From: a virus | DNA: 64,000 bases | Virus record (IMG/VR): IMGVR_UViG_3300012944_000006 | Strand: one strand, 5' to 3' | Part shown: positions 3,301 through 60,102 of the stretch, in pieces | Numbering within the stretch: the stretch's first letter is position 1 | Layout: each line of letters starts with the position of its first letter | The notes under the pieces: generated by a model | What the model saw: only the letters and a program-made list of their open reading frames with translations | Told to the model about the DNA's origin: nothing | The model's database searches: none | Translations under genes and position numbers: made by a program

Positions 3301-3526
3301 TATTCTCCGTAGGGGGTTGGGGCCTGGTGTAGTTGAAAATCAATTGGAAATGATCCATCCCCTGAGCAAGCTCCACAAGAAGATCATCCTCTTCACTCTC
3401 TGAACTAATCACAATCTGAACGGGTGCATCTGGCGCAATTGCAATATTAGCCTGCATTAACTTCTCCCATGCTTCCCAAACCCAATGCATTAGCTCCACC
3501 TTGCTGAGCTTCTGTTCTAACTCCAC
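3275..3526 (-). CDS. small acidic hypothetical protein (start uncertain: 3526, 3490 or 3457)
   Basis: ORF overlaps portal 3' end; the internal ATG at 3457 overlaps the last portal codons. Confidence 0.4.
   Translation of the reverse strand: MELEQKLSKVELMHWVWEAWEKLMQANIAIAPDAPVQIVISSESEEDDLLVELAQGMDHFQLIFNYTRPQPPTENNETSTKTV
3309..3329 (-). promoter_or_regulatory. dispersed motif copy (YACCAGGC-N5-8-CCCCT), gene-proximal
   Basis: - strand reads caccaggccccaaccccctac then ggagaata ATG of 2935-3300. Confidence 0.5.
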
Positions 3527-5498
3527 TGCTCATACCACCACCAGGAATCGCTCCCTCATGCTGGACTGTTGCAGGTCGGCCCCCAGGATGTTTACCATGA
3601 CTGGGAGCCTTAAGAGGGTGGCTGCTACCACTCCCTCCGGGCTTACCCGTACCTTTGTGCTTTGCTATTTCTACCGCAGCCTCAGTGTCCACAGTCTTTT
3701 CGAGAAGGGCCATCTGCATTTGTTGCTGCATCTGAGCCTGCTGTTCCATCTGAACCTCTTCATCTGACTTAATCAGATCGTTGATGTTCCGAATCTCCAT
3801 GACCTTGCCGATCTCTCTAAGACCTTCGCCAGCCCTCCAGTAGGGGGTGTTCATGGCGATGTTGGCAAATGCCATTAGATTACGTTGCCGGACTTGCTTG
3901 TTGGTTGCATAGTTTGCAGCCACAAGATTAAATTCAAAATTGCCTATGATCTCCGCAGGGCTGATCGACACCCATTTGGGGATCATAGGCGGCTGCTTGG
4001 TCATCTGAACCTCTTCAGCATCGCTCATAAACTGCTGAACCATTGAGGAACACATAGCCAAGAGTGGCTGAAGGATATCCATCTCCAAGTTCCGAATGAA
4101 CATCTTAAACCGATAGTTCGATTCGTTGATAATACTGGAGATGCCGGTTGCAGTACGGTTGCCTTGCGATCCACCGATTGCCTTACCGTAAAAGTCAGAT
4201 ATCCCCGAAGCCATCTCAATCATGCCCTTATAAAGGTCCATGATAGCATAATCACCCTGATTAGGGGTGAATAAAGGCAGAGGCGAAATAACATCATTTG
4301 GATTACCATTGACGCCTACTTTACCGCCGGGAACGTTGAACTGATTCAACGCCTCATGATCTATATCTGCGTTTAGATCATAGGCAAACCTACGGTTAAT
4401 TCCCAGGTTCCAGTTGTCTGTTACCATATTCGCAAACTTGTTCAGAGATTCTGTCAAGTCTGTGATGGTCTCAATAGCGCCTAAACCATAGACTTCATTA
4501 GGCAGCTTGATATAACTTGTATAAAGGATGGCGTTCCGCTTATGATCAAACTGATTTTCTCCGTGCCAGAGCAGCTTGGCAGGACCAGTATAGACCTTTC
4601 GCTTGTAGGGAGAATAGGCCGTTGCTCTATAGCTTGCTCGGAGATCTTTCCAAGCAATTGCTTCTGAGTCTTCACCGAATGTGATAGTAGTAACGGTTCC
4701 TTGATAGACATCCCATAGCTCCGCAATGCGGATCAAAACTGTATTTACATCATCCGGATACTTAGATGCGATCTCTGTCTCAAGCTCTGCAAGTACTTGA
4801 GGATCATACATATCCTGTCCGGTAGCAGCTTTATAAGCCTGCGATTCACGCTTCATAACAATGAAGGGAATTTCAGTAAGCTGTCCCACAATCCCTTTGT
4901 CCGGATCACAAAGTAGATCATAAATATCAATAGCCGTCAGCTTTGGACAAGCCATCGGCACTTGAAAGGTCTGAGGCTTCTGCCCAATCATAATAGGCTG
5001 GCCGTCAGGACCGGGAATCACATTACCCTTAGCATCCTGTTGATAAACAGCAACTGGTTTAGTTAGTGTTTTAAAATCCCAGTTCCAATCAACTTTAATA
5101 CCACCATGCCCATATATAGCAATGTTCCGTACCAATGTTTCAAAAGCGTCTTGGAGTCGTGCTTCTGTAAGCTTTTTGTCCAAGACCAGAGACATAGACT
5201 CAGCCGAATGGTCGTCCTGAGCTGTAACACCCGACACTTCAAAGAAAGGCGCGAAAGAAAAGAATGCATCAGATACCCTCGATGTGATTGTTTCCACATT
5301 GGATAGAGGATAAGGGACGAAAGTATTCGACCTTGCTGTTACATTGTCGGGGAACTTCTGAGCGTCTCTCTGCCCAATATACTGACGATAGAACGTAGCT
5401 CTACGTTGATCGTATTGCCGTCTATAGTCCAACATCCTCCGCAAACTACGGAGTGTTAGATCTTTGATGTCCCCTGTACCTGGAGAAGCTTGATTCAT
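3447..5498 (-). CDS. portal protein
   Basis: 683 aa, between the terminase side and scaffold/capsid; Gln/Gly-rich C-terminal tail; synteny-based. Confidence 0.75.
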   Translation of the reverse strand: MNQASPGTGDIKDLTLRSLRRMLDYRRQYDQRRATFYRQYIGQRDAQKFPDNVTARSNTFVPYPLSNVETITSRVSDAFFSFAPFFEVSGVTAQDDHSAESMSLVLDKKLTEARLQDAFETLVRNIAIYGHGGIKVDWNWDFKTLTKPVAVYQQDAKGNVIPGPDGQPIMIGQKPQTFQVPMACPKLTAIDIYDLLCDPDKGIVGQLTEIPFIVMKRESQAYKAATGQDMYDPQVLAELETEIASKYPDDVNTVLIRIAELWDVYQGTVTTITFGEDSEAIAWKDLRASYRATAYSPYKRKVYTGPAKLLWHGENQFDHKRNAILYTSYIKLPNEVYGLGAIETITDLTESLNKFANMVTDNWNLGINRRFAYDLNADIDHEALNQFNVPGGKVGVNGNPNDVISPLPLFTPNQGDYAIMDLYKGMIEMASGISDFYGKAIGGSQGNRTATGISSIINESNYRFKMFIRNLEMDILQPLLAMCSSMVQQFMSDAEEVQMTKQPPMIPKWVSISPAEIIGNFEFNLVAANYATNKQVRQRNLMAFANIAMNTPYWRAGEGLREIGKVMEIRNINDLIKSDEEVQMEQQAQMQQQMQMALLEKTVDTEAAVEIAKHKGTGKPGGSGSSHPLKAPSHGKHPGGRPATVQHEGAIPGGGMSSGVRTEAQQGGANALGLGSMGEVNAG

Positions 5499-5854
5499 TA
5501 AGCCTTAGAAACAACACTGTAGTACAGCGTGCCAGTAGCCGCCCCACCAAAGGGAACGATCACTTCGTTGTAACGCCCCATATCAAAGATCTCAGGAACG
5601 TTTGCGGGGAGATAAATGTCATTAGCTGTTGCAGTCGTAGCGCCAGCAGAGGCGAAACGAACAAACATCGGAGATGTAGCCACCAAACGGACTAGAACAT
5701 TGTGCCCAAGGGTGATAGGGGTTCCAATCGTAGTGATCGAAATTGCCTGAGAAGCACCATTAGCCTTAGTGTTAGTACCGTTAGTAACAACTTGGTAAAA
5801 AATAGGAGTGGCGATTAGAGTGTACCTCTTTCCCTGCGCTCTGCAGGTTTTCAA
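5498..5854 (-). CDS. Ala/Thr/Gly-rich small virion-block protein
   Basis: 118 aa, beta-prone composition like 6434-6898 and 6908-7282; stop/start overlap with portal. Confidence 0.5.
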   Translation of the reverse strand: MKTCRAQGKRYTLIATPIFYQVVTNGTNTKANGASQAISITTIGTPITLGHNVLVRLVATSPMFVRFASAGATTATANDIYLPANVPEIFDMGRYNEVIVPFGGAATGTLYYSVVSKA

Positions 5855-7310: not shown

Positions 7311-7334
7311 ATAGAGGGGAATTGTTGCCTGGTG
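7311..7334 (-). promoter_or_regulatory. dispersed motif copy
   Basis: - strand reads caccaggcaacaattcccctctat, 28 nt before the ATG at 7282; pairs with 7339-7359 as a hairpin. Confidence 0.5.
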
Positions 7335-7338: not shown

Positions 7339-7359
7339 TACCAGGCCTTAATCCCCTAG
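7339..7359 (+). promoter_or_regulatory. dispersed motif copy, inverted partner of 7311-7334
   Basis: taccaggccttaatcccctag. Confidence 0.45.
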
Positions 7360-9981: not shown

Positions 9982-10209
9982 CTATACTTTTGATTCTGGA
10001 TTATTAGGATACAAACAGTTATCAGTAACTTCGATAACCTTTTTAACCTGATTATACGAGTCTCTGATAGATAAGAGGGGTTTTACTGCCTGGTCTGAAG
10101 GTGTAACCTCCTCCAAGCACTGAGCAAAGCAATTGGCATCGCAGTCGGGTCCGACTGTTAGACATTCATCCAAGCCTTCCTGATATGATGTAGCTGATTT
10201 ATGATCCAT
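9982..10209 (-). CDS. hypothetical protein
   Basis: 75-aa ORF, start/stop-coupled to neighbours. Confidence 0.5.
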   Translation of the reverse strand: MDHKSATSYQEGLDECLTVGPDCDANCFAQCLEEVTPSDQAVKPLLSIRDSYNQVKKVIEVTDNCLYPNNPESKV

Positions 10210-10823: not shown

Positions 10824-12098
10824 TCAGTACCATAACACACCCTTTTGTACCATCCCATTGAAAGAATTTTCATATATTTTTTCACATTCTTCCTCAGAGA
10901 GGGGACTACAGCCTGGTGGGGGGGTATTCCGATAGAAATCTCTTAAGTCCTTGGATAGCAGAGCTTCGCAGTGAATCTGCGGACAGTACGCCGCTGCTCT
11001 TCCTAATCCCCAAGAATTCGTGTTCACAGACGGATATAGCTGCTGATAGAAAAAGATAGACTGGGTTTCGTGTACTGGGGTCATCGTCCTCGGCTGGCTC
11101 CGCCAGTAAACATGAGAGTCCGTACGCCTCACGAAGAAGGGACTGTAGGGTTTCCCATCGCGTATTTCGGATGTCACTAACCATTTAGGCTTTAATCTCC
11201 TAAGTTCTTCAGTATTTGAGGGATATAGGCTTCTCCAGCGCTCTGCTGCCTCTTCCAGGCCTGCACGGGGCTTCCAGTTGGTCCGGGCTTCAACTCTGTT
11301 GGCTGAGGCAAACCGGGGGCAATTAGGTGTCCAAAGCCATTGGGTCATCTCAATTCGCATGTCAAAGTGGCATTTGAAACAAATTATCTCATGTTCATAG
11401 ACATTCTTCCACATATCCTCCAAAGCCCAGACTTTATTGGGGATAATGTGCATCGGATCATTTTTCAGGACTGGTCTACAGGCGTAGTCGAATGGAAGTG
11501 GTTCATGACATATTGAGCAGTTTCGTCCCAGGGTAAGGAGGATTTTGTGCCAAAGCTCGCATTTGGCGAATTCTTGGGCTGTATTGGGTCCCGGTCGATA
11601 AGGGCCGAATTTTGCATGGTGGGCGTAGATAGAGAGCCACTTACATACGTTTCGGACATAGCGCTTCGCAGCACCCTCAACAGCTTTGTCAACGCTCCCT
11701 CTGTCTGGCGCATTGAATCTATTAGTGTTTTTAACGTATCTTCGCCAAGAAGTTCGTTTTTCGTTCTCAAAATTCCAGTTAAGGACTTTCTCTCGGCCTT
11801 TAATGCTGACTGCTTCTGGTTTAAATACTGGCGGGTGTGTTTTAACGTCGTTAACAATTCGTTCGTACCATCTAGTATATCCATAGAAGAACCTGTCAAT
11901 TGCTTCTTGTTCACTTAAATCCTTCCATGCTGCTTTATAGTTTGGTTTTCTTGTCTCATGATGGTAGTCTTTGAACTTTTGAAGCTGATCTCCCTTGTCT
12001 TCTCGGGACATATCCTTGTATTTCTGGCGTCTCAAGAGGTTATAAGCATCTTTCTCCTCCTGGGTCATTGCATTCCAATTTCTAGGCATTCTCCACAT
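10824..12098 (-). CDS. HNH-domain protein (terminase-associated type?)
   Basis: CSICHEP...MHIIPNKV...ICFKCHFD matches the CxxC..H..N..CxxCH HNH layout; adjacent to packaging genes. Confidence 0.6.
   Translation of the reverse strand: MWRMPRNWNAMTQEEKDAYNLLRRQKYKDMSREDKGDQLQKFKDYHHETRKPNYKAAWKDLSEQEAIDRFFYGYTRWYERIVNDVKTHPPVFKPEAVSIKGREKVLNWNFENEKRTSWRRYVKNTNRFNAPDRGSVDKAVEGAAKRYVRNVCKWLSIYAHHAKFGPYRPGPNTAQEFAKCELWHKILLTLGRNCSICHEPLPFDYACRPVLKNDPMHIIPNKVWALEDMWKNVYEHEIICFKCHFDMRIEMTQWLWTPNCPRFASANRVEARTNWKPRAGLEEAAERWRSLYPSNTEELRRLKPKWLVTSEIRDGKPYSPFFVRRTDSHVYWRSQPRTMTPVHETQSIFFYQQLYPSVNTNSWGLGRAAAYCPQIHCEALLSKDLRDFYRNTPPPGCSPLSEEECEKIYENSFNGMVQKGVLWY
10896..10918 (-). promoter_or_regulatory. 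dispersed motif copy inside the 3' end of 10824-12098
   Basis: - strand reads caccaggctgtagtcccctctct. Confidence 0.4.
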
Positions 12099-12614: not shown

Positions 12615-12634
12615 GAGGGGAGCTTTGCCTGGTG
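12615..12634 (-). promoter_or_regulatory. dispersed motif copy, minus-pointing member of a back-to-back pair
   Basis: - strand reads caccaggcaaagctcccctc, at the divergent junction. Confidence 0.5.
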
Positions 12635-12660: not shown

Positions 12661-12681
12661 CACCAGGCCTTAATCCCCTAT
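12661..12681 (+). promoter_or_regulatory. dispersed motif copy, plus-pointing member of a back-to-back pair
   Basis: caccaggccttaatcccctat followed by tggaggt. Confidence 0.5.
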
Positions 12682-15954: not shown

Positions 15955-15978
15955 CACCAGGCCATCAACCCCCTCTAT
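15955..15978 (+). promoter_or_regulatory. dispersed motif copy
   Basis: caccaggccatcaaccccctctat, 49 nt before the ATG at 16028. Confidence 0.5.
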
Positions 15979-17536: not shown

Positions 17537-17708
17537 CATTTCAGCCCAAACCCCCTATCTAGCCATCAGGGAGGGATACGTTCTACCGTATCCCATCTCT
17601 GATTGTGCTAGTGCAAAGGACATGGTTCCATACGCAATCTATCCTAGCGTCTCAGCGTTAATAAAGATGCTATCCACCAGGCCCCTAACCCCCTCTATGG
17701 AGAACTAG
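17520..17708 (+). CDS. hypothetical protein
   Basis: 62-aa ORF; its 3' end contains a motif copy. Confidence 0.45.
   Translation: MTLSINISAQTPYLAIREGYVLPYPISDCASAKDMVPYAIYPSVSALIKMLSTRPLTPSMEN
17675..17698 (+). promoter_or_regulatory. dispersed motif copy
   Basis: caccaggcccctaaccccctctat then ggagaactagaga ATG 17712. Confidence 0.5.
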
Positions 17709-18718: not shown

Positions 18719-18918
18719 GGGCCAGACAAGATGTTATCGAAAGACACAAGGCTATAGCTATCCATTATGGGATCAGCTTTAAAACACTAACGGAATCTTT
18801 ACTCGGCCCTGAACGATTTATGACAATGACTCCCCTAGCTCGTAAAGTCATTGTAAACGATCTTAAACGGCAAGCCAAAAAGGTGGCAGTTACTAAAAGC
18901 CAGATAATAGGGGGTTAA
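18691..18918 (+). CDS. hypothetical protein
   Basis: 75-aa ORF in + operon. Confidence 0.5.
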   Translation: MREYKGCFIRARQDVIERHKAIAIHYGISFKTLTESLLGPERFMTMTPLARKVIVNDLKRQAKKVAVTKSQIIGG

Positions 18919-18927
18919 TGCCTGGTG
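18907..18927 (-). promoter_or_regulatory. dispersed motif copy, reverse relative to the gene, contains GTG start 18925
   Basis: atagggggttaatgcctggtg. Confidence 0.45.
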
Positions 18928-20471: not shown

Positions 20472-20557
20472 TGGTAGGAGTTTCTATCTTGTTCGCAATG
20501 TTTCTTTGCGGTGTATTTTTCGGAGTGGCTCTTGTTCGAGCCTTCACCAGGCATTAA
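20471..20557 (+). CDS. 28-aa hydrophobic micro-ORF
   Basis: TAATG overlap with the upstream stop; MVGVSILFAMFLCGVFFGVALV; its stop is the TAA inside the motif copy at 20545. Confidence 0.3.
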   Translation: MVGVSILFAMFLCGVFFGVALVRAFTRH

Positions 20558-20567
20558 CCCCCTCTAT
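20545..20567 (+). promoter_or_regulatory. dispersed motif copy
   Basis: caccaggcattaaccccctctat then taggagagtt ATG 20578. Confidence 0.5.
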
Positions 20568-22894: not shown

Positions 22895-22900
22895 GTGACT

Positions 22901-23917: not shown

Positions 23918-23919
23918 GC

Positions 23920-28500: not shown

Positions 28501-28504
28501 ATAA

Positions 28505-45700: not shown

Positions 45701-47829
45701 GGGGTAATGCTGGCTGAGGAGGCCTGGGCCTTACGGGTGCTCTCAACGGATTTCGGAAGCTCGGTCCCACTGGGGGTTGTGGTCTCCGGGGCTCCAACAG
45801 GTTTCTCCGACTCATACAATTCCTTTGGTAGCTGACGCTTAATAGACGCAGGAAGTTTATCCAATTGGCCGCGTAGTTCGCTAGTGCCACCTTGGAGTTG
45901 TTCTTTCCACTGAGCAGTTAGATCTTGAAGCTGTGCTTTAGTTTCTCCCGAAAGCTTCTTAGCAGCGTTCTCGTAGATCGAGTTCTTTAAATCACGAAGG
46001 TCTTGATCGACTTTGTTGTAATCCGGAGTCTCAATGTGCATACCCGAACGCATAGTATCTTGAAGTTCTTCTTTGGAAATCCTGCTGGCTGACACGCTGG
46101 TAAGATTCTTAAGTTCCTCCAGTTCCTTCGGTGTTGCTCTACCTAGTGTAAGATCCCTAGGTTTCTTGCCTAGAACTGCCTCAAGGTTCTCCACAGTAAG
46201 CGGAGCAATCTGACCGCTGAAGCCCTTAGGAGCAAACGGATACTCAAGATGGGTAGGATCAAGGTCGATAGGAGAAGGCATGGAATACCTGGGCTGATAA
46301 AGATACGGCTGTGGTTTTCCATTAGCGTCTAGTTCTAGTTTCTCTGCCAACTTGGCTTTAAGACCTGGATCAGTTGTGCTACTGAAGTCTGCTTTCATCC
46401 GTTCTCTAGACTCAGCAAGCTGTGTTTTCATGTATGCTGACTGAGCAGCAAAGCCCTTAACACGCTGAAGCTCGTTAGTAGAACCAAGCTGGCGTCCCAT
46501 TAGATCGTTAAGCTTATTAAGCTGCGGTTCTGTCAAGCCAAAAGATTGCACAGGCTCTTTCAATATTTTAGACAGCTTAACAACATCTTCAGGCGCGATA
46601 CTTCCGCCCTGTGCAAACGTAGCATCCTTGGCTCTCTGTATAAGGGCAACTGCTTTATTCCCAGTCACAAGTTGATTCAAACGGAACACACGTCCCACAA
46701 GCGGACGCATCCTATCCTCAATATCCTTAAGAGCAGTTGGGGGAGCTGAGGGGGTTGTAGCCTGGGGGGTTTCTTTCGGTACAGGTACTTCTTCTTGCTT
46801 TACAACTTCAGGTTCTTTAAGAGGCTCCGGGCTAACCTCCGGGGCCTTTTGTATTTCTGGTGTAACCTCAGTAGGAAACTCATTATGCTGAACGAAACCT
46901 TTATTGTCCGGAAGCTGTTCTACAAACCCACCCGTATCTAAAGGTTCAACTATATTTCCGGATACCGGATGTCGAAGTACAGGCTCCACTGGTACAGGCG
47001 ATGTTACTTCTACCGGTACAGGCGGTGCTATTTCCACTGGAGGAGCTTGGACTGGAGCTGCCTTTTCACCAGGCCTAATAACCCCTCGTAAAGCTTCTGC
47101 CTTACGAGCATCAGCTTGTTGACGTAGCATATCCAGAGATGGCTTTACTTCAGCCTGTACATGGGCAGCGGCTGGAGTTGTAGGATGCTGTTCTTCGATA
47201 GTCTTTGCTACAGGTAATTCACCTTCGCCAGCTCCAAAGCCTAGATGTCCTAGTAAAGCAGGAAGTGCAAGTTGTCCGAATCCATAAGCCGGATGTGCTG
47301 CAAGCTGTTTGATTTGTTCCATTTGCTGAGCCTGAGCATCTTGCTGTGCTTTGAGATTAGCAACACCGGCAGCGGCACCAGTCTTACTGAATGGAATCAT
47401 AGTAAGAGTGCCGGAGTATGGATTACCAACACTCTCTCCTGAAGCCATGAAAGGTTCACCTTGGCTCTTAATAGTTTGAATAGGGTGGACAACTGGGGCG
47501 GTTATAGCAGATGCTGCGCCAGTCGCTATGTCTGTAGCAGAGCGGGTCAGGTAATCAGCCCCACCCTTCTCATCCATCGGAGACAGGACTTTGTCTACCA
47601 TACCTTGTGCAGACGAAACAAGCCCCTTAAAGCTATCCCATAGAGACGACTTTTGAGGGGCTTGGGGTGTGGACGCAGGAGTACCCCATTGTATCTGATT
47701 GTGATACACGGGGTACTTGCTTACTACTTTATTTGCAAGTTCTTCATCCGGAACATTATCATATGCACCCGGATACTTAGCTTTGATTTTTTGTCCGAAC
47801 TGCGCAGGACTTAGAAGATTATCAGCCAC
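42730..47829 (-). CDS. 1699-aa virion-associated giant protein (internal/ejection or tape-measure-like)
   Basis: Largest ORF, terminal gene of the tail block; Pro/Glu/Val-rich linker around aa 250-370; no catalytic motif seen. Confidence 0.55.
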   Translation of the reverse strand: MADNLLSPAQFGQKIKAKYPGAYDNVPDEELANKVVSKYPVYHNQIQWGTPASTPQAPQKSSLWDSFKGLVSSAQGMVDKVLSPMDEKGGADYLTRSATDIATGAASAITAPVVHPIQTIKSQGEPFMASGESVGNPYSGTLTMIPFSKTGAAAGVANLKAQQDAQAQQMEQIKQLAAHPAYGFGQLALPALLGHLGFGAGEGELPVAKTIEEQHPTTPAAAHVQAEVKPSLDMLRQQADARKAEALRGVIRPGEKAAPVQAPPVEIAPPVPVEVTSPVPVEPVLRHPVSGNIVEPLDTGGFVEQLPDNKGFVQHNEFPTEVTPEIQKAPEVSPEPLKEPEVVKQEEVPVPKETPQATTPSAPPTALKDIEDRMRPLVGRVFRLNQLVTGNKAVALIQRAKDATFAQGGSIAPEDVVKLSKILKEPVQSFGLTEPQLNKLNDLMGRQLGSTNELQRVKGFAAQSAYMKTQLAESRERMKADFSSTTDPGLKAKLAEKLELDANGKPQPYLYQPRYSMPSPIDLDPTHLEYPFAPKGFSGQIAPLTVENLEAVLGKKPRDLTLGRATPKELEELKNLTSVSASRISKEELQDTMRSGMHIETPDYNKVDQDLRDLKNSIYENAAKKLSGETKAQLQDLTAQWKEQLQGGTSELRGQLDKLPASIKRQLPKELYESEKPVGAPETTTPSGTELPKSVESTRKAQASSASITPAGKKILGKVNDIVEEITTKWPEHQDSIKTVVQGAVERYDDEDSQLKFIHKGLTILHQGLKDNAPDALKKSIDALSRKGESGAIGQNVAPYSPTETQKIAAFTLDTLLKRYEGMTPTELAAYKESFWSEDNRELMDLANDAGLRQRYKKLSDSVPGSNSPSISLANLFASKAEASEAMAIMREASGVRYRTHRIIEKNMNIFDKLMNQLSIPESLRFMDNMEQGKSQVQGVLDTSNARIMKQWHKEYGGSIPDLDDVAFVLRGALDRARNDAQAVTGKFDTYIANYLPHIFNNVGRAQTFAKDWLARSPLEGSTGFLRHREYQFMQDALAAGLQPTTYNPVRLAMMRIDQLDRYTMAHKIQEQFKSTGLAVHYNPGQQPQGWVALDDKIFQPKQYSEDEKGLINRGQYYAPEAVARKFNNFVSQGLQGKWKIPYTSLSLYDSIRNYNNLANQFELSMSLFHATETLLNSAISDGSIGLKQLINQGKIGSAVVRLARTASVVAPIVRHTYYGDHMIAEVDNPGTFLNMSQASRDFELANGRISADPLLVAHSIENLKLNWKLATDNYRGREARIAAGAKLPFNLAGSMIEALAYPLMNMLIPRVKMGTFYDMASQIRDEYAGQSPEVIRQELQKAWDSVDNRYGQVVRENLGMNDAMKDILAVTLRSPGWNIGTVREVGGGAIDLAASVGKAVTGKDRFRITNRTAYALTMIGMTAYLNAMYQHLHPGAPPVEGMDYLYPRNGSKNLNGEWNRVYPKLYTYDFVNLLHNPADTIFHKEAPLMSTMGDMYRNSNYYGRGITDPGDPAAKRIADLSMYMGKQFIPFSISNAQERALRGDTDWQAKIESASGILPAPKWAGQTEAEQLASKYFQTTQSKGPEDEVAFERKQQFVQLRNEFAKGNINEDKLEEALNKGYIKPHQLKYLFDTRNKSLLERYTPQLQFSQVWKVWNAANDGEKEKLLPIVLKKVASEGPEDQEKYIDSIQSYLDSRP

Positions 47830-47856: not shown

Positions 47857-49104
47857 TTATTGATTGAGATTCAAGGGATCATTAGGATTTGGTTGACTAG
47901 TGGGAGGAACCATTGGATTGGGTGTATAACCATTTTGCTCTTGCAACCCACTAAGGTGCATGACTTTATCGGACAAGTCCTGTTGCTTCTTACGTAATCC
48001 CTCTAAATATTGACTATAGGCTTTTGTCCCATAGAACATCTGCTTACCGCTAACAGGGTCTTTTAAGATCTTACCTGGAGTATTAGCATCTCGATACTCC
48101 TGTTCAGCAACCGACTGTTGTTTCGTAAGTACATCAATCTGGTTCTTAAGAACTGGATCAAACTTAGCAGTACCTCGACCAGCCGTTGCGTGCCAAGCAT
48201 TCTTCTCGCTAAAGTATTCAGAGTTCATACCATCGAGAATCTTATGCCACGCAGCAGCCGGAACTTGCTCTGCACTACCATACTGTTTAATCAGTTCTCT
48301 ACCAGCAGCATCCAAATATCTATGTCCAGCTAGTTTAATAGGATCTTGTGACTCTCTCTTTAGATCTTCGAGTTGTTTGTCGTAACCAGCTTTCTGATCT
48401 GCAAGCTGTTGCTTTACATCATCGTTGTCTTTATAATGCTCCAACATTCCAGAGTAGTAATCACTCATAGCTTTGTTATGAGCGATACCAGCCTTGGCAG
48501 TATCCTGCTCCTGAGCTTCCTTCTGAAGAATAGCTACAGACTGAGCCTGTTGGAACGGAGCCATAAGCTGCGCGTTGATATGATCGTTGTGCGCTCCTTG
48601 ACTAGCCAACACTCCTTGAAACACATTGCTGATGCCTTCACCAGCCGTCTGAGCAGGCTTAGTAAAGGCAGCACCAGACATAGCACCTTCTAGGGCACCA
48701 GCAATATGAGGATGATTCTGCCACAAGCTATCGCTATGAATAAAGAGATGTGGATCTACATTGACATCATTGGTCACACCGAACCGACCAAGAAGCTCCT
48801 GAACCTGCGGAGAGTGTAGAGTATCCTGACTCATCGCAGCACCTTCGGTAGGGGAAACCCCCCCTCCAGGCCTAGATCCCCTCGTGCCCCCCGGAGTTTC
48901 ATTCCGAGGGATGTAGGGTCTGTTTTTATAAGGCGGGATGTTGGGTTTGCTACGTCCGGGATTTACCGGGGTAGCTGCCATAGGTGAAGTTCCCGGATTG
49001 ATCCCAGGGTCGCCCATCATAGGCGGTTCATTACCGGGAATAAGATGCCCTAAACCCACCGCATTAAACATATTAGAGATTAGAGGATTGTCTGTGAAAG
49101 CCAT
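47857..49104 (-). CDS. virion-block protein
   Basis: 415-aa ORF upstream of the giant gene. Confidence 0.55.
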   Translation of the reverse strand: MAFTDNPLISNMFNAVGLGHLIPGNEPPMMGDPGINPGTSPMAATPVNPGRSKPNIPPYKNRPYIPRNETPGGTRGSRPGGGVSPTEGAAMSQDTLHSPQVQELLGRFGVTNDVNVDPHLFIHSDSLWQNHPHIAGALEGAMSGAAFTKPAQTAGEGISNVFQGVLASQGAHNDHINAQLMAPFQQAQSVAILQKEAQEQDTAKAGIAHNKAMSDYYSGMLEHYKDNDDVKQQLADQKAGYDKQLEDLKRESQDPIKLAGHRYLDAAGRELIKQYGSAEQVPAAAWHKILDGMNSEYFSEKNAWHATAGRGTAKFDPVLKNQIDVLTKQQSVAEQEYRDANTPGKILKDPVSGKQMFYGTKAYSQYLEGLRKKQQDLSDKVMHLSGLQEQNGYTPNPMVPPTSQPNPNDPLNLNQ

Positions 49105-50091: not shown

Positions 50092-50111
50092 GAGGGGATT
50101 GTAGCCTGGTG
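50092..50111 (-). promoter_or_regulatory. dispersed motif copy
   Basis: - strand reads caccaggctacaatcccctc, about 20 nt before ATG 50071. Confidence 0.5.
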
Positions 50112-50514: not shown

Positions 50515-52970
50515 TAGATTCTCGAAATAGGGGAGTAATCGGTGATGAAAGAAGTCAGCACATCTGCAGATGTGGCCGAAGGACTGGGAGCACCAATCTG
50601 GAAAGAGTAGAATCGAGCGCGGCTGTTCGCCCCGGCAAGATAAAACTTCCTTGCTCCACCGAACGGAGCAGTTGTAAAAGATCCAGTCTTAATGGTGTAT
50701 GGAGAATCAAAGTCTGCTTGTGTAACAGCTCCGTAGACAGTGGCTACCATAGCATTTTCGTCTCCGATAGCTTCCATCTCATTAAGAACTTTCCAAACAG
50801 TGGCATCTCCCATATCCTGCCAGGTGGTTCGAACATTCCACGGAATAGACAAGTTGTTGTTCTGGAAGATAGGAGTACCACCGGGAGCAGGAACGTTAGT
50901 AAAGTCTTTGGTTTGAGTTGGATTGAAGTACCACGTCAGCAGAGAAGTATCGCAGAATTCAGTATAGAATAAGAATCTATTTCCACTACTGGGATACTGA
51001 TAAAAGAATATCGAGGTTGGCCCGTGATAATCTACCACCCCGCCTTGAGGAACGCCAATAGGGAAAGTCCAATGATACCACTTTCTAAGAGTAGTCTCAA
51101 AGATCAATAGCTCTGGATATGTCTGACCAACTCGTCTAAAGAAAACAACCGCGAAGTTATAGGGGCCATAGGTAAAGGATTTAACAGCAGCACCAGTGAA
51201 GGTTAGATCCCACTGTTGAAGATAGGAATAAACCGGAACGCCTACATCTTCATACGTATTGAAGTCAGAGAACATTACTTTATAGTCGGGAGTGATCCAC
51301 ATATAAGCTGAGGGTTGACTCTCTTTATATATGACATTCCAAACATCTTGATTCAATACGCCAGTCTGAGCAAACTGTTGATCGGGGATACTAAAGGATG
51401 CCATATCCGTTCCATACAAAGTATAGACCGCTCTGGTCGTAGCTATATGAAGAACCTGTCCATTAGATTGAAGAGCTGTAACCCGTTCATTATCAGTAGC
51501 AATAGGAATCTGGTTGGCACCAGGAAATGCTTCCTCCCATTTGGCGGTGATCAATCCTGTTGAAGTTGTAACCTCGTCAATGCTTTTTGAGAAGTAAACG
51601 TTCACACCATCAGTAACAAAGATCCTGCCCACATGAACCGTAGGATAAGTAAAAGGTTCTTGCGGGGGTAAATTATCTGCGATTCCTAAAACGTTACCGA
51701 ACTCATCCGTATCTACATATAGATTCTGCGTTAGAAGCGTTGCTCCTGAAGTATATGTCTGACTATAGGTATCAGGCATAGTATCAGTGTAGGTAAACGT
51801 TAGGTTTGTATTAGGACCTACAACCGCAGGAGCAAAAGAAGATAAAGGAATCTTCGCTACCAAATAAAGATGTTGTTCATCTCCACCATCTGAAGTAGCC
51901 AGCAGTAGAACCGTATCTACCTGCCCATCAATGACAGCGTTGGCTGTATATCGTTTGATCGGTCTATTATTCCCGGTGTTAACGACAGGTGCAGCACTTC
52001 CTACTATATCGGAGATGCTAATGTTTACCGTTAAGCTGGTGAACCCAGAATTCTGATTCGTCCAAGTTACTGTACCATCGGTGGTTGTACCACCCACAGT
52101 TTCATTCCAAGTAGGAACACTTGTCCCACTGGTTCCAGCAGTCGTTACCTTCTGATTGTAAATCCCATCATTAACAATCTGACCGAGAATATAAGTAGCT
52201 GCTGGTTGCCAAGCTGCCTTAGAAAGACTTGGAACCGGGGGATTAAAGCTATACCAAATGTCAGAGACATGACCTGTGAAGCTATTCATGAAGGCTACGG
52301 TATACTGTCTACCAGTCGCAAAGGTCAATGGACCTGTGCCATTCGGAGTAACCGTAATCAAATTGGTCTGATTGCCTGCCGCATCTAATGCGGGAAGTGG
52401 TGCGACAATGCCCCAAAGATTCGGGCCTTGAGGGGTATTAAAGCCTGGTGAGGAGTTCAGCCCCCAATTAATTTTAACCGCAGTACCCAAACCTACCGTC
52501 AAATAATTCCAGAAGCGACTGGTTACAGCGTAGATATTTCCGTTGGCTCCGAATGAAGTTTGGAAATCCGAAGGTGCAATTGTAAGTCCGCTTCTGCTAT
52601 ACGCAGACCCGTCATCATTCAGAACCTCAAGTAGATTGATATTCCGATACAAGAAAATGTTGGTAGCGCTGGTCCCTGAAGGATTAGAAGCATCCTGCGG
52701 TACGTTGTAAAAGAAGACTTGGCTCGGTGTACCAGCAGCCGGATAAGCTGCGCCACTTAAAGCACTGAGATTGTAGACTCCCCATCTCGTTCTAAAGCCG
52801 CCACTTACTCCAGGCAAAAGATTGTTTAAATCTAAGAATGCCTGAGGATTCTGGTTAGGTCCAGACGAGAAGGTGTCAATGCCAGCATCAATGAAATGGC
52901 TATAGACAGTCCGGTTAGTATACCTATGATACCAGCCTACGTATTCAGTTGGAACCTGATTGTAAGGCAT
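50514..52970 (-). CDS. large tail protein (nozzle / tubular-B-like by size and order)
   Basis: 818 aa directly after a 211-aa ORF, like the tubular A/B pair of podoviruses; analogy only. Confidence 0.5.
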   Translation of the reverse strand: MPYNQVPTEYVGWYHRYTNRTVYSHFIDAGIDTFSSGPNQNPQAFLDLNNLLPGVSGGFRTRWGVYNLSALSGAAYPAAGTPSQVFFYNVPQDASNPSGTSATNIFLYRNINLLEVLNDDGSAYSRSGLTIAPSDFQTSFGANGNIYAVTSRFWNYLTVGLGTAVKINWGLNSSPGFNTPQGPNLWGIVAPLPALDAAGNQTNLITVTPNGTGPLTFATGRQYTVAFMNSFTGHVSDIWYSFNPPVPSLSKAAWQPAATYILGQIVNDGIYNQKVTTAGTSGTSVPTWNETVGGTTTDGTVTWTNQNSGFTSLTVNISISDIVGSAAPVVNTGNNRPIKRYTANAVIDGQVDTVLLLATSDGGDEQHLYLVAKIPLSSFAPAVVGPNTNLTFTYTDTMPDTYSQTYTSGATLLTQNLYVDTDEFGNVLGIADNLPPQEPFTYPTVHVGRIFVTDGVNVYFSKSIDEVTTSTGLITAKWEEAFPGANQIPIATDNERVTALQSNGQVLHIATTRAVYTLYGTDMASFSIPDQQFAQTGVLNQDVWNVIYKESQPSAYMWITPDYKVMFSDFNTYEDVGVPVYSYLQQWDLTFTGAAVKSFTYGPYNFAVVFFRRVGQTYPELLIFETTLRKWYHWTFPIGVPQGGVVDYHGPTSIFFYQYPSSGNRFLFYTEFCDTSLLTWYFNPTQTKDFTNVPAPGGTPIFQNNNLSIPWNVRTTWQDMGDATVWKVLNEMEAIGDENAMVATVYGAVTQADFDSPYTIKTGSFTTAPFGGARKFYLAGANSRARFYSFQIGAPSPSATSADVLTSFITDYSPISRI

Positions 52971-53605
52971 TACTGAACGAATGCGCCTTTCTTAAGCAGC
53001 TCATACTGCTGTGCCCAGAAGCCAACCTCCTGGTCAAGCTTCAGATATTGACAAGCCAACATGTTAACACCGGCTACTATCAGATCCTTACCATCATTCG
53101 GGATCAAAAGAACATCCGTTAGATTCACCAGATCAGGACTGTAAGCTTCGTAGTGAACCTCATAGGTTCCATTGAAGGCTGCCTTTTGAGGAGCTGGAAA
53201 TATCACCAGGCCAGTAGTCCCCTCTCTACGATAATATTCCGGCCACTGTTGCATCGTTTTCGGAGTCAACATAGGTTCGGGAATCTGGAGGGGAGCTTTT
53301 GCCTGGACTGCATCGGCTTCTGAGGCAGGAAATATAAGATTGTCTATTGGAAGGATAACACGATCAAAGGTTCGGTCATATAGAAGAACGATACGCCGGG
53401 TGGTAGATGGGATGGTATACAAAGATGTTCCACTAACGACATTGACCGTTGTGATGTTCTGTAGAAGGGTATTGAATAACGATGTGTGAAGTGCATCCTT
53501 CTGAATGCGGTTGACCCAGGGGATTAAAATAGCTGCATCCGTAGAACCGTTAAGAACCTGACGAATGTCGTTGGTGGTATCATTGATGATATCTTGAACT
53601 GTCAT
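52970..53605 (-). CDS. tail protein (tubular-A-like by size and order)
   Basis: 211-aa ORF, start/stop coupled. Confidence 0.45.
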   Translation of the reverse strand: MTVQDIINDTTNDIRQVLNGSTDAAILIPWVNRIQKDALHTSLFNTLLQNITTVNVVSGTSLYTIPSTTRRIVLLYDRTFDRVILPIDNLIFPASEADAVQAKAPLQIPEPMLTPKTMQQWPEYYRREGTTGLVIFPAPQKAAFNGTYEVHYEAYSPDLVNLTDVLLIPNDGKDLIVAGVNMLACQYLKLDQEVGFWAQQYELLKKGAFVQ

Positions 53606-55044
53606 ATAGCGGTGGGCACCAGTGTTGCACTCTTTGCGATAAAGGCAACGGTAGTATTAGCTGGAACGGAAACAGCCTGTGCTGTAAATCCACCAGCGAT
53701 AGGCGTTAAGGAAACTCGTACCGGAGTTGCGGTAGCATTGCTGGCGTTGAGTGTGTACATTAGACCAGCAGTATTTGAGACCGTAGCGTTGTTAAAGGTA
53801 ATTGTTCCTGTGCTTATTGGAGAGGCCGTAGGGTTGGCAATGATAATTACATTTGCCGTAGTCGTATAGAATGCACTGGATTGAAGACCTGCGGTGCTTG
53901 TTCCGGGGGAGATAGATGTAGCTAGACTGGCCCCAGTACTTGCTCCCAGATAGCTTGTTGAATTAACCAGCTGATAGAAGTAAAAATTTGAATTGGGTAT
54001 AAGCGGTGGTTGTGAACATGTCATTGTCACCGGGTCCCAGAAGAGACAAAAGAATGTACCGGAACCAGAACTAGCTGCCGCATATTGATCAGCTTGTGTG
54101 ATCTTGGAGTTCGCCCAGTCCATGAAAGATATTGAATCCCAAAGGGGACCAAATGTTGCATCGTTCCTGCAACAGTCAGAACTAAAAGCTGAACTTGTGG
54201 CGGACTCAGTTACAAAAATTGGAGTTGTAGAAGCACTAGGTTGAGTTCCTGCTCGTACGAGGGTTGTGATTGAAGAGGCAAGAGCTTGCTGTCCTGCACC
54301 AGCATCTTGTAACGTGTTGAAACAAGTAGTCCAAGTTCCTGTGCATCCGGCTAGATAAGAATGATAGTCTACAAACTGTACTGATGGTGCGGTTCCTGTA
54401 TTGCCCAGAAGACCTGTGGAAGCATTCGAAAGCCAAGCTGCCGCATTGGTTGCAGGTGCTCCAAGAACAGGGCCACCCACCAAAGCGGTAGAACTGTCGG
54501 CTACAACCTGTGCAATCATGGCAGGTCCAGCAGCCGTATAGAGGGGAATATAGGCCTGGAGATTTGTTCCACTTCCAGGACAGAATTGACCTGTTAGATC
54601 GTATTCATTGCCTACTTCCCAATATAGAACTAAACCGGGATGCAATCCATCCACGTGTGCGATAGCTGCAGCGGCTCTTGTTGCCCATGTGGTATTGTTA
54701 CTGGGAGGAGTACAACCCGATGCTCCTAAGTCCGGAGGAGTCAATTCAATAGATACTATAAGTTTATATCCACGAGCAGCAGCAAGAGTTGTTATTCCGT
54801 CAATTGATGTATAACTTGGGGTGCAAGGGCTTGGGCAATTGGCCCAGACTTGTTGTAGAGAGATGAACTCTCGGGATAGAGTTACTCCCGCATTTGTCAA
54901 TAAGCCTGTGCTATTTACATCTAAGTGGGACATAGTGTTTGTCCCTTGTACTACTAGCGGTGTTCCTCCTGTGAAGCTTGCACTTACCGCCCCAAAGGAA
55001 TTAGATACCATTAATAGAATTAATGACAGATATCGTAGCTTCAT
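53602..55044 (-). CDS. signal-peptide-bearing clan GH-A-like glycoside hydrolase
   Basis: MKLRYLSLILLMVSNSFGAVSA; LYWEVGNEYD (acid/base NE motif) and PIFVTESA (candidate nucleophile Glu). Confidence 0.6.
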   Translation of the reverse strand: MKLRYLSLILLMVSNSFGAVSASFTGGTPLVVQGTNTMSHLDVNSTGLLTNAGVTLSREFISLQQVWANCPSPCTPSYTSIDGITTLAAARGYKLIVSIELTPPDLGASGCTPPSNNTTWATRAAAAIAHVDGLHPGLVLYWEVGNEYDLTGQFCPGSGTNLQAYIPLYTAAGPAMIAQVVADSSTALVGGPVLGAPATNAAAWLSNASTGLLGNTGTAPSVQFVDYHSYLAGCTGTWTTCFNTLQDAGAGQQALASSITTLVRAGTQPSASTTPIFVTESATSSAFSSDCCRNDATFGPLWDSISFMDWANSKITQADQYAAASSGSGTFFCLFWDPVTMTCSQPPLIPNSNFYFYQLVNSTSYLGASTGASLATSISPGTSTAGLQSSAFYTTTANVIIIANPTASPISTGTITFNNATVSNTAGLMYTLNASNATATPVRVSLTPIAGGFTAQAVSVPANTTVAFIAKSATLVPTAI

Positions 55045-58286: not shown

Positions 58287-60067
58287 TACCGTGTTACGCC
58301 CCAATTAATTGTCAATGCTGCCGGAGTAAGAGAACCGCTGGTGTTATTGCAAACCTTAAAGTTAACGTTCCCAGATGTGGGATAAGACTGGATATAAAGG
58401 CTACCCGTAGCCGAAACTGCATATCCGGTTACAGCCGTAGGATCAGCATTTGGAGTAATCACAATTCGATCTGTAGTAGTAACACCAGTTGCCGCTACCG
58501 TGATTACGGTAGCACAAACTCCCGTAGTAATTGCACCCGTACCCATCGCAGTTGAACCACTAGCAATGGTCTGAGTAACCGTACCCTGTCCAAAGAGTGC
58601 TCCAGAAGGCAACCAGTTTACGTTGTCTGCACTTGAGAACACATCACACTGGTTGGTTCCAATTGTAAATGTCGTTCCAGCACCAGGCAAAAAAGCCCCT
58701 GCAGAGATCGTGAGGGTTACAAGTCCTGTGTTTTCATTACAAGCTTTGAACGAGAAGTTGTTACCTAGAGTTGCAGCCGTAGTAAGAGTAACAGCAACTG
58801 CAGAAGCGGAGTTATAAAGAACCGAGCTACCACGATCTGTTGCTACTACAGTATCAGTTGTGCCTGCAACAGTACGACCTGGAACACCAGAAAGACCCCA
58901 TGCAGCCGGTTGACCTACACCACCCGAAGGAGTTGAAGTAAGAATCTGAGGAACTCCGTTGGGAGTAGTTGGTAGGGTAGGAAGTCCAGTAATTGCTTCG
59001 CACTGTCCATCTGCCGGAACATATGCTTGAGCAGCCGTACCACAACCTGTCAAACCAGCCAAGAAGGAAGCCAAATCAGAAGCCACAGCAGCAACTGCAG
59101 TACCCGAGCCGTTAGTTCCTAGAAATTTAGAACTAATTAAAGCCGTATCTTTCAAAGAACTAAACGAACCCGCAGCCGGAGTCGTACCTCCAATCGCCGC
59201 CGGAGTTGCAAGATAAGTAGCTAAGTCTAAAGCAACAGGAGCAATAATAGAACCAGAAGGGGACCAACTGTAAACAAATACATGTCCACTGGTTGTAGGC
59301 CCTGCAATATAAGTTGTAGTGCCGGCTGCAGATTGATAAGGAGCCGAACCTAAAGCACCCCCACCAAGATTGGTAGAGGTAGTTGCAGTCGTAGCAGTTG
59401 TTGCGTTAGTGGCGTTTGTTGCATTGGTCGCTGTTGCCGCGTTTCCGGTGTAATTGCTACCAGCAATCTCAAACTTAACTATACCACCAGATGTATTCGT
59501 AGCCGTGATAGACAAACCTACGCTGTTAGTAACAGAATTTATAAGATTCAAAAGCGTCTGATTTAAGTTCGGAGTACCGTTGGTTTGAGTAGCTGGACCA
59601 CTTCCACCACCACCTGTCGCTGCAGTACAACTTGTCCCATTACAAACATATACAGTATTAGTACCAGTATCGGCACTGATTGTACCAGCATTTATTAAAA
59701 AACTTAAAGTTCCTGCAGATCGCGCAGAAGCAGTTGTAACCTGTCCATTGTTTGGATTGGTATTACTAGCAACCGATTGAACATAATAGTTATACTGGAT
59801 ACCCGCAGTCAACCCAGTAAGACTGACACTATGAGTAAGGACCAATGTAGGATCTAAGGTTGAACTACTACCAGTCGCACCAAGTTGACCATAAAAGACT
59901 TGAGACGAAGAAGCAATGTCCGTAGTCCATATGATTGTAGCTGATGTCGAGGCTACAGTTCCCACCCCAACACCAGAAATAACTGGGGGTACTGCAGTAG
60001 GAAGTTGAGCTTGAAGCGGGGCAACTATGCCCAAAATCAAACCAAGTATATATGTAAAACGTTTCAT
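58286..60067 (-). CDS. signal-peptide-bearing fibre-like protein with FN3-like N-domain
   Basis: Trimmed to MKRFTYILGLILGIVAPLQAQ; SATIIWTTDIASSSQVFYG; NATNATNATNATTATTATT run; motif copy upstream. Confidence 0.55.
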   Translation of the reverse strand: MKRFTYILGLILGIVAPLQAQLPTAVPPVISGVGVGTVASTSATIIWTTDIASSSQVFYGQLGATGSSSTLDPTLVLTHSVSLTGLTAGIQYNYYVQSVASNTNPNNGQVTTASARSAGTLSFLINAGTISADTGTNTVYVCNGTSCTAATGGGGSGPATQTNGTPNLNQTLLNLINSVTNSVGLSITATNTSGGIVKFEIAGSNYTGNAATATNATNATNATTATTATTSTNLGGGALGSAPYQSAAGTTTYIAGPTTSGHVFVYSWSPSGSIIAPVALDLATYLATPAAIGGTTPAAGSFSSLKDTALISSKFLGTNGSGTAVAAVASDLASFLAGLTGCGTAAQAYVPADGQCEAITGLPTLPTTPNGVPQILTSTPSGGVGQPAAWGLSGVPGRTVAGTTDTVVATDRGSSVLYNSASAVAVTLTTAATLGNNFSFKACNENTGLVTLTISAGAFLPGAGTTFTIGTNQCDVFSSADNVNWLPSGALFGQGTVTQTIASGSTAMGTGAITTGVCATVITVAATGVTTTDRIVITPNADPTAVTGYAVSATGSLYIQSYPTSGNVNFKVCNNTSGSLTPAALTINWGVTR

Positions 60068-60081
60068 TCTCTGTCTTTCAG

Positions 60082-60102
60082 ATAGGGGATTATGGCCTGG
60101 TG
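60082..60102 (-). promoter_or_regulatory. dispersed motif copy
   Basis: - strand reads caccaggccataatcccctat then ctgaaagacagaga ATG 60067; also encodes the endonuclease VII C-terminus. Confidence 0.5.

Follow-up and report, generated by a model that had tools for sequence, protein, structure and literature searches.

The 64,000-nt window studied here, which is the whole analysed stretch of IMG/VR virus record IMGVR_UViG_3300012944_000006, carries about 35 copies of an asymmetric motif of 20-25 bases made up of two boxes, CCAGGC and CCCCTC. These copies are a real family of sites that is specific to one phage clade, is selected as DNA, changes its form from lineage to lineage and is largely independent of the orientation of the genes around it. 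Most likely the motif is a protein-binding site and not a simple promoter. Beyond this we infer a reader protein, recognition of duplex DNA and a gating function: it is possible, though short of probable, that together the copies make up an array at which a two-headed protein encoded by the phage binds both boxes of the duplex DNA and punctuates the gene modules.

Copies in the window and its relatives

As a strict pattern we took ACCAGGC-N5-8-CCCCT on both strands of the window. It matches 27 times, against a mean of 0.02 and a maximum of 1 in 100 dinucleotide-preserving shuffles. A relaxed core, CC[AG]GGC-N4-9-CCCCT, which frees only the first base and the A of box 1, finds 33 copies (shuffle mean 0.16), adding those at 23207(-), 33262(-), 46749(-), 48865(+), 53289(-) and 54542(-) to the strict set. 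Two further degenerate copies bring the total to about 35. The first, at 33331..33354 on the minus strand, has a 12-nt spacer (ACCAGGC-N12-CCCCT) and the second, at 40658..40674 on the same strand, has two mismatches (ACCGGGC-TTAAT-TCCCT). A preliminary description of this DNA had picked out both as degenerate relatives (33329 and 40657), along with 48864, which is a true one-mismatch copy. All 24 copies that it listed are present, with positions 1-4 nt off only through flanking bases counted in. Its "at least 24" was right as a bound, but three strict copies had been overlooked, at 10076(-), 28004(-) and 58682(+).

The pattern scan with shuffled controls that it proposed for the genome and its relatives gives 27-33 copies in the window against 0.02-0.16. 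In c4803, a sequence of 60.6 kb rebuilt from overlapping pieces of one 65.1-kb relative, there are 32 copies against 0.54 in shuffles. Nor did unrelated sequence show a comparable density. A host genome-wide repeat was rejected, as 185,579 genomes, one per species (596 Gb), hold only 86 scattered single matches in unrelated taxa.

Across the 33 copies the consensus is c-A-CCAGGC-N6(18)/N7(13)/N8(2)-CCCCT-C-t-a/t, with few G in the 5-6 bases 5' of box 1, and the window's version of the motif is CACCAGGCATTAACCCCCTCTAT. IMG/VR holds many relatives, and loci related to the window are given L numbers here. The motif family is present in relatives with a portal identity of at least about 62% and absent at 54% or less, and we found no motif analogue in the distant relatives L111, L120, L124 and L136-L139. 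Searches for related loci with two single proteins (that of the 818-aa gene and ligase 2) returned no loci, and a loose motif scan of viral contigs gave mostly chance matches among the matches listed.

Each lineage has its own version of the motif, common to all copies of its genome. In c4803, whose proteins are 27-76% identical to those of the window, this version is CCAGGCCAAACCCCTCT. Most lineages have CCAGGC as box 1, L097 and L110 have CCAAGC, and L135 has CTAGGC; the 3' tail, likewise depending on the lineage, reads CTAT, CGTCA, CTGTAG, CCCA or CTCAT. Spacers measure 6, 7 or 8 nt in the window (18, 13 and 2 copies) and 4, 5 or 3 nt in c4803 (18, 12 and 2), in nearly equal proportions. 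Such parallel retuning of all copies in a lineage is expected from co-evolution with a single reader. By analogy with T7-group promoters and stoperators, a single trans-acting reader that changes between lineages probably sets the form of the site.

Many positions are shared across this divergence. The copy at 29204..29222(+), co-oriented and 12 nt 5' of the likely start (ATG 29235) of the sigma-factor gene, is syntenic with c4803 12500(+). The copy at 34813..34831(+), co-oriented and 19 nt 5' of the start (34851) of the family A DNA polymerase gene (PolA), is syntenic with c4803 18571(+) and L165 1001(+), and that at 38943..38960(+), co-oriented and 36 nt 5' of gene 38997-39770, with c4803 22464(+) and L165 5066(+). 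Both ends of the integrase gene are likewise occupied in relatives, its start by 41819..41836(-), anti-oriented and syntenic with c4803 24419(-) and L165 6987(-), and its 3' end by 42694..42711(+), which encodes SPGINPL at a convergent junction and is syntenic with c4803 25665(+) and L155 794(+). Between genes 50112-50351 and 49733-50071, the co-oriented copy at 50093..50110(-), 21 nt 5' of the latter, matches c4803 33852(-). A co-oriented copy lies 5' of the homologue of gene 6908-7282 in 10 genomes (nine related loci and c4803), and the junction between the portal gene and the next gene carries one copy or a pair in about 10 related loci. The copy at 10900..10917(-), co-oriented at the 3' end of gene 10824-12098, is roughly syntenic with c4803 57517(-), and the one-mismatch copy (CCCAGGC) at 33262..33279(-), anti-oriented in the gap after gene 32727-33113, has a similarly placed counterpart at c4803 16301(-). 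Despite turnover, the order + - - + of the copies between 29 and 35 kb is kept in both genomes.

Among the intragenic copies, three are orthologous between the window and c4803 with diverged protein sequence on their flanks: 28004..28023(-), anti-oriented within the ATP-grasp gene 27715-28500 (c4803 11028(-)); 46749..46766(-), a co-oriented one-mismatch copy at about residue 360 of a 1699-aa gene (c4803 30203(-)), lying in a poorly conserved linker; and 48865..48882(+), an anti-oriented one-mismatch copy at about residue 78 of gene 47857-49104 (c4803 32684(+)). In this last gene the two genomes differ by 2 nt in where box 2 falls with respect to box 1, with no indel, so that each genome fits its own spacer rule. 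The copy at 30310..30327(-), anti-oriented within COOH-NH2 ligase 3 (29727-30650), was gained in the window's lineage: the orthologous segment of c4803 is equal in length and has no motif, and the copy arose by substitution. Intragenic copies thus replace sequence without a change of length and are not inserted elements. The preliminary description had pointed to copies within coding sequence, above all that in ligase 3, as a sign of selection on the site, and the comparison with c4803 bears this out. Judged from these alignments, it is the DNA (or RNA) site itself that is under selection, not a by-product of coding sequence.

The same observations speak to the idea that the copies serve only themselves, as a miniature mobile element, or are passive linkers for recombination without function for the phage. 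Copies do lie at module boundaries, their back-to-back pairs resemble terminal inverted repeats, and gene content beside some of them varies among relatives (7384-7989, homologues of 613-993, the endonuclease VII gene). However, copies arise by substitution with length unchanged, their positions are conserved over deep divergence, every copy follows the lineage-specific version, and there is no associated transposase. We regard this explanation as highly improbable. Membership of a MITE-like family was rejected, since intragenic copies show no indel and many positions are conserved across lineages. The small genes in question, 613-993 (an unknown 126-aa protein), 7384-7989 (a histidine phosphatase) and 60090-60395 (endonuclease VII), are differently placed among the relatives compared (L094, L096, L097, L101, L105 and L111), which suggests gene movement at boundaries next to motif copies.

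Placement at genes and the promoter question

Thirteen of the 27 strict copies lie no more than 40 nt from a gene boundary, in zones that make up 17.7% of the genome (P=3e-4), and about 16 copies in the window are intragenic. Relative to the local coding strand, 20 of the 33 copies are co-oriented and 13 anti-oriented (14 on the plus strand, 19 on the minus strand), and the ratio in c4803 is similar.

The preliminary description counted thirteen co-oriented copies ahead of start codons. There are 11, ending 10-90 nt before the start and never closer than 10 nt, and the Shine-Dalgarno sequence that it placed in between is indeed there. Seven of these end merely 10-21 nt before the start codon. 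Besides those before the sigma-factor gene, PolA and gene 49733-50071, close co-oriented copies are found at 3311..3328(-), 10 nt 5' of gene 2935-3300 at the junction of portal and next gene; 17676..17694(+), 17 nt 5' of gene 17712-17939; 20546..20563(+), 14 nt 5' of ATG 20578; and 60084..60101(-), 16 nt before an ATG at the junction of the endonuclease VII gene (60090-60395) with gene 58286-60109. Somewhat farther off are 7315..7333(-), 32 nt 5' of gene 6908-7282, and 15956..15974(+), 53 nt 5' of gene 16028-16294. At one syntenic junction relatives place the copy anywhere between 24 and 96 nt from the start; it is thus no fixed-distance translation element.

A back-to-back pair, as had been described, sits in the 347-nt intergenic region where the minus and plus gene blocks diverge, its left half (12616..12633, minus) pointing to the minus block and its right half (12662..12679, plus) to the plus block. 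The first gene of the minus block (12082-12423, minus), which adjoins this region, has a 113-aa product whose RF-1 (peptidyl-tRNA hydrolase / ArfB-like) domain matches PF00472 (E=2e-9). Another pair joins the copy at 7315 to an anti-oriented partner at 7340..7357(+), their ACCAGGC boxes 6 bp apart; the partner adjoins gene 7384-7989, which is missing at this place in most relatives.

Three anti-oriented junction copies themselves supply a Shine-Dalgarno sequence (GAGGGG) and the start codon, and the three starts named earlier, GTG 18925, GTG 37566 and ATG 41828, do lie inside copies. At 18909..18926(-) the Shine-Dalgarno sequence reads AGGGGG and GTG 18925 is within the copy; 37550..37567(-) provides the start of the DUF3987 gene, and 41819 that of the integrase, with the stop of gene 41480-41818 in its tail. 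The integrase ATG falls in the spacer and gives an N-terminus M-P-G that is identical in L165 and c4803, and these homologues uphold the start at 41828. At the integrase 3' end, 6 nt from copy 42694, lies a strong, canonical terminator for the minus strand (42667-42688, a 9-bp GC stem and a T-run) just beyond the end of the 1699-aa gene.

The remaining copies lie within coding sequence or at its ends. Co-oriented ones occur at 10076..10094(-) in the small ORF 9982-10209, at 24976..24994(+) in gene 24425-25219 (222 nt 5' of the ligase-2 start), at 45222..45241(-) in the 1699-aa gene, at 52431..52449(-) in the 818-aa gene and, with one mismatch, at 54542..54560(-) in gene 53602-55044. Anti-oriented ones occur at 47068..47086(+) in the 1699-aa gene, at 58682..58700(+) in gene 58286-60109 and, with one mismatch (ACCGGGC), at 23207..23224(-) at the 3' end of the GGACT-family gene 22895-23284. 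Gene 52970-53605 holds a convergent pair, made up of an anti-oriented copy at 53205..53223(+) and a co-oriented one-mismatch copy at 53289..53307(-).

The leading earlier reading of the motif was a promoter for a phage sigma factor or a phage-directed RNA polymerase. Host RNA polymerase with the phage's ECF-type sigma factor (29198..29743, plus strand; regions 2 and 4 present), or else an unrecognised phage polymerase, would start at the 3' edge of the motif. Co-oriented copies would drive gene modules, and anti-oriented copies would make antisense or primer RNAs. Much of the placement looks the part: the 11 co-oriented copies with a Shine-Dalgarno sequence before the start codon, the pair exactly at the divergent junction, and a copy directly 5' of the sigma gene in the window and c4803, as for autoregulated ECF sigmas. 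The capsid operon has a co-oriented copy before it and a terminator after it. The motif is also the sole over-represented upstream signal. Sigma-70-like sites are not enriched (24, 27 and 25 in three 20-kb segments of 1-60 kb, against 31-34 expected in shuffles), and no other -35/-10-type dyad is enriched upstream of genes above shuffles, leaving no alternative sigma promoter signal. Lineage-specific consensus sequences at syntenic positions resemble the promoter sets of T7, T3 and SP6, and those of phiEco32 and 7-11 (PMC8948821).

Yet no ORFs lie behind the anti-oriented copies, which number 13 of 33, and anti-oriented intragenic copies are conserved at orthologous positions. Only 11 copies have the upstream, co-oriented placement of a sigma promoter. 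Before PolA, the window, c4803 and L165 have a co-oriented copy and L135 has an anti-oriented variant, so that this junction tolerates either orientation. An ECF sigma needs elements about 16-18 bp apart; the boxes here are 3-8 bp apart, with a spacer that differs by 2 nt between lineages. Between the start codon and the seven co-oriented copies that end 10-21 nt from it, a -10 element, a start site and a Shine-Dalgarno sequence would not fit. Searches of the large ORFs against Pfam, PHROG and PDB sequences, with a motif scan of the 1699-aa protein, gave no match to a phage RNA polymerase family and no polymerase motifs in that protein.

The comparison with known phage promoters is similarly divided. 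The promoters of phiEco32-like sigma factors (gp36, tAATGTAtA; 7-11 gp47, GTAAtg-N16-aCTA) belong to the supergroup of the present phage, which shares with it the SU10/phiEco32-type portal and adaptor, an amidoligase cluster and a sigma factor of its own; these promoters, too, have a lineage-specific consensus at similar genome positions (PMC8948821). However, they number only 6-8, all co-oriented upstream of genes, with a single -10-like element or a 16-bp spacer (PMC8948821); the motif has about 35 copies, which use both strands and lie partly inside genes, and its spacer is 3-8 bp. T7-group promoters share with the motif a length of about 20-23 bp, a place directly 5' of ribosome-binding sites and lineage versions at syntenic positions, but they need a phage RNA polymerase (none was found here), have fixed spacing and are all co-oriented. 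Taken together, the 20:13 orientation, the conserved anti-oriented copies, the PolA flip, the spacing and the missing polymerase lead us to rate the promoter reading, which is only partly supported, as unlikely. That no single simple model covers all orientations, as the preliminary description concluded, agrees with the 20 co-oriented and 13 anti-oriented copies and the flip at the PolA junction.

Alternation, spacing and other readings

Along the genome, the copies tend to alternate in orientation. There are 23 orientation runs in the window against 17.1 expected (P=0.026), and 16 against 10.3 in segment 1 of c4803 (P=0.004). Pooling neighbours over 17 sequences, which are not fully independent, gives 88 opposite and 34 same-orientation pairs. 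None of the 34 same-orientation gaps is below 300 nt (the minimum is 824 nt), against 21 of the 88 opposite-orientation gaps, and 17 of those 21 close pairs are back-to-back, with their CCAGGC ends facing. On the closed genome, the smallest same-strand gap is 1720 nt for plus (P=0.003) and 824 nt for minus (P=0.007), and the per-strand coefficient of variation (CV) of spacing is 0.55-0.59 (P=0.03 and 0.004). The alternation probably reflects selection against nearby direct repeats, which phage exonuclease and annealing proteins could delete; the genes for a Cas4-like exonuclease and an AAA_24 (Sak4-like) protein fit such selection.

In the window alone, coverage had seemed very even (collapsed CV 0.49, P<5e-5; plus strand CV 0.31). 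This was undone by an 8.2-kb arc without a copy that runs from 60101 to 3311 across the adaptor, tailspike and capsid genes. On the closed circle a modest regularity is left (CV 0.68, P=0.016), and same-strand avoidance stayed robust. Relatives do carry copies within the equivalent of this arc, after the homologues of genes 378-647 and 7-318.

Strand-wise spacing could instead reflect a signal of DNA metabolism that acts strand by strand and is not concerned with gene expression. Each strand would have its own spaced set of sites, co-evolving with the enzyme that uses them: either loading or priming sites for a primase-less replisome built on PolA and a putative replicative helicase of the DUF3987 family (37566..38711, plus), or topoisomerase or resolvase sites for the Xer-like tyrosine recombinase (the integrase, 41828..42733, plus). 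Like the sigma factor, these two proteins are candidate trans-acting factors only. Consistent with this are copies on both strands whatever the coding strand, the same-strand minima of 1720 and 824 nt, and the + - - + order kept through turnover. The DUF3987 protein follows PolA in motif-bearing lineages, and an AAA_25 helicase stands there in two motif-less ones. The integrase has intact catalytic residues and is bracketed by inverted copies, and the inverted ACCAGGC arms of 7315/7340 lie 6 bp apart, as in dif-type sites. We also found no recognisable primase in domain scans of the window's proteins, which counts in favour of the idea.

On the other hand, both orientations flank any single origin, an arrangement for which replication of a simple bidirectional or rolling-circle type would have no need, and the primase sites known are 3-5 nt long. 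A dif/lox-like core would have inverted arms and a 6-8 bp centre. The arms of 7315/7340 are 6 bp apart, those of the other back-to-back pairs have 13-150 bp between them, and most copies stand alone. The 8.2-kb arc has no copy, the helicase correlation involves two motif-less lineages only, and tolerance would be left as the sole reason for the enrichment at junctions. We consider a DNA-metabolism signal doubtful. As to the replaced helicase, the AAA_25 (DnaB/RepA-like) genes at the DUF3987 position are L136 12941-13822 and L138 10088-10837, a non-orthologous replacement among few sampled lineages.

Alternation would also fit an RNA-level element. Opposite-sense copies in one polycistronic transcript would pair into duplexes of 15-20 bp, forming local hairpins where they are close and long-range stems where they are distant, and serve as RNase III processing sites, stabilisers or terminators. 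The preference for back-to-back close pairs fits, and pairs in the window fold at about -30 kcal/mol; the 7315/7340 pair does form the hairpin predicted for it earlier, at -30.6 kcal/mol. Over about 20 nt, the copy 18909(-) is a perfect complement of 20546(+). After the capsid operon, at the spot where the window has an ordinary terminator (340-370, minus strand; strong and canonical, with a 14-bp stem and T-run), the GAGGGG of an anti-oriented copy in relatives pairs with CCCCTC farther downstream, and in L094 a T-run comes next. However, single copies are not unusually structured (per 100 nt, the minimum free energy is -21.8 for copies and -22.3 for controls; P=0.83). The spacers of neighbouring opposite copies usually differ, so that most long-range duplexes would be interrupted. 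Moreover, cleavage at mid-gene anti-oriented copies would destroy the message, and one transcript shared by both members of a pair is an assumption. These points make an RNA element distinctly unlikely. Identity as an intrinsic terminator or structured RNA family was rejected: there is no Rfam match and no tRNA-linked element in the window, single copies do not exceed controls in structure, and hairpins are confined to pairs and a few copies of relatives.

Another conceivable reading is site-specific nicking, as at the localised interruptions of one strand known from T5, phiKMV-like phages and phage tf. The motif shares with them a short consensus, which is bipartite with a short spacer in phiKMV (CGAC-N5-CCTACTCCGG), similar positions among relatives and an apparent co-evolution of site and enzyme, as was proposed for tf (PMC3517423). 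But known nick sites, which number 4-14 or more, are always on one strand (PMC3517423). Here 14 copies are on the plus and 19 on the minus strand, and opposite-strand copies are often within tens of bp; at 6-50 bp apart, nicking both would break the genome. We give this explanation very little weight.

There remains the reading that we favour, an array bound by one protein. One phage-encoded, sequence-specific factor would read CCAGGC and CCCCTC in the double helix, where the two boxes are spaced by about one turn. Its roughly 35 sites would lie mostly at gene-module boundaries and, in long genes, at tolerant stretches of coding sequence. The bound protein would act as genome-wide punctuation, either as an array of operators or roadblocks that gates read-through between modules or by organising the DNA, and transcription would not start at the sites. 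Orientation relative to genes would be largely free, with neighbours kept opposite, probably because recombination enzymes would delete nearby direct repeats.

Several observations weigh against a bound-protein array. Those that look like promoters have been given above: the start-linked copies, the divergent pair, and the lack of sigma-70-like or other promoter signals. In scans of about 90 ORFs with Pfam, PHROG and NCBIfam, the sole proteins of a kind that reads DNA sequence were the sigma factor and the integrase; these scans gave no candidate for the binding protein, and no repressor or other helix-turn-helix (HTH) protein was recognised. The best 120 capsid homologues are all on contigs of at most 70.4 kb, with no prophage context and no sign of lysogeny. 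The 8.2-kb copy-free arc indicates that sites are not needed everywhere. The strict orientation of stoperators is not seen (20:13, and the PolA flip), and a gating or roadblock role is purely something that we infer.

The phage genome and comparable site arrays

The window comes from an uncultured SU10/phiEco32-like soil phage. An identical genome occurs on soil contigs from JGI and ENA (L266/L267), in which the right end of the window joins its left end through 963 nt, making the window 98.5% of a circular assembly of 64,963 bp. This junction completes a 955-aa gene for a pectate-lyase-type tailspike, and the window is a circular permutation of the assembly. INPHARED holds no near-identical phage isolate, the nearest isolates having only about 21-25% protein identity. 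Genes run in three blocks (minus, 1-12.4 kb; plus, 12.8-42.7 kb; minus, 42.7-64 kb), and a tRNA scan found no tRNA genes in the window. Structural genes comprise the SU10-type portal and adaptor, an N4-gp56-type capsid protein and the large terminase; genes for DNA processing include the Cas4-like nuclease, the AAA_24 (Sak4-like) protein and endonuclease VII. PolA (34851-37271) is fused to a UDG-like domain.

A phiEco32-type cluster at 20994-30650 encodes three COOH-NH2 ligases (20994-22331, 25216-26724 and 29727-30650), a GGACT cyclotransferase (22895-23284), a glutamine amidotransferase (26724-27743) and an ATP-grasp enzyme (27715-28500), with the sigma gene embedded in it. Gene 40603-41106 has the N-terminal domain of a dATP/dGTP diphosphohydrolase (PF18909, E=3e-30), a domain known from phages with 2-aminoadenine DNA. 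Near it and PolA-UDG, in a region including 38997-40637, are a metallophosphoesterase and a deoxyribonucleotidase-like gene. The PF18909 gene, the PolA-UDG fusion and the neighbouring nucleotide genes hint at non-canonical bases in the phage DNA.

The 1699-aa protein (42730-47829, minus) has long low-complexity stretches rich in Pro, Glu and Val together with coiled-coil-like stretches. It is 34-42% identical among relatives, has no sequence match in Pfam, PHROG or PDB, and is probably an internal virion or ejection protein. Two tandem arrays of about 205 bp (16321-16525 and 18130-18336; period 6/18, GGTCTG-type units) sit within two plus-strand ORFs of 77 aa, 16294-16527 and 18105-18338, which thus encode paralogous small proteins of Gly/Leu/Asp-type hexanucleotide repeats.

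The closest analogues of the motif that we can name are the stoperators of Cluster A mycobacteriophages (L5 gp71-type) and the 17-bp repeats of Cluster O. Stoperators, too, are asymmetric and dispersed, with over 20 per genome, chiefly in short gaps between genes but in part inside them; 33-35 such lineage-variant sites are found in the window and 32 in c4803. Stoperator variants co-evolve with their reader, and their two elements lie about one helical turn apart (PMC9283540). A monomeric two-domain repressor reads them in successive major grooves (PMC9283540). The earlier comparison of the motif to a stoperator-like operator array is therefore a fair analogy. However, stoperators are 13 bp long, against about 20-25 bp with a variable spacer here, and have a repressor gene of a kind that we did not find. 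Their orientation is strictly tied to transcription, and reversal abolishes function, whereas the motif is split 20:13 and alternates. Because fixed orientation is missing, we do not file the motif as a stoperator.

Cluster O phages such as Corndog carry more than 30 dispersed 17-bp sites, about 34 copies, of which roughly a third lie in genes, at similar positions in relatives; like the motif they are not linked to promoters, their function is not known, and the phages are not obviously temperate (PMC4351075). These sites are perfect dyads (TGTTCGG-N3-CCGAACA), presumably for a dimer, in contrast to the asymmetric, alternating motif, whose asymmetry allows orientation to be scored. Repeated short sequences at gene boundaries are also known as the PeSL cassettes of T4-type phages (PMC2839356) and the Start-Associated Sequences (SAS) of Cluster K phages (as described in PMC4351075), some of them linked to module shuffling or translation starts (PMC2839356; PMC4351075). 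PeSLs are promoter-plus-hairpin units confined to hyperplastic early regions, a confinement that the motif does not share. SAS include the ribosome-binding site and are strictly start-linked, whereas the motif lies outside it at a variable distance (24-96 nt at the syntenic junction mentioned above) and also occurs in genes. We thus class the motif as a variant within a general kind, the dispersed phage-specific site array.

Few cis-acting "grammar" elements of a phage genome can be read from its sequence, and dispersed arrays of genome-specific sites belong to these few. To our knowledge, only the promoter and stoperator types of such arrays are understood, and we know of no report, for known arrays, of alternating orientation, avoidance of same-strand neighbours or upkeep inside genes through protein divergence. 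The array described here is unusually informative in that it is asymmetric, clade-wide in uncultured soil phages and retuned in each lineage, and the motif is a clean marker for spotting members of this phage clade in metagenomes. If the reader protein were found, it would represent a new sequence-specific DNA-binding module whose specificity and spacing can be tuned by lineage, and would offer a handle on how transcription or replication is organised in these phages.

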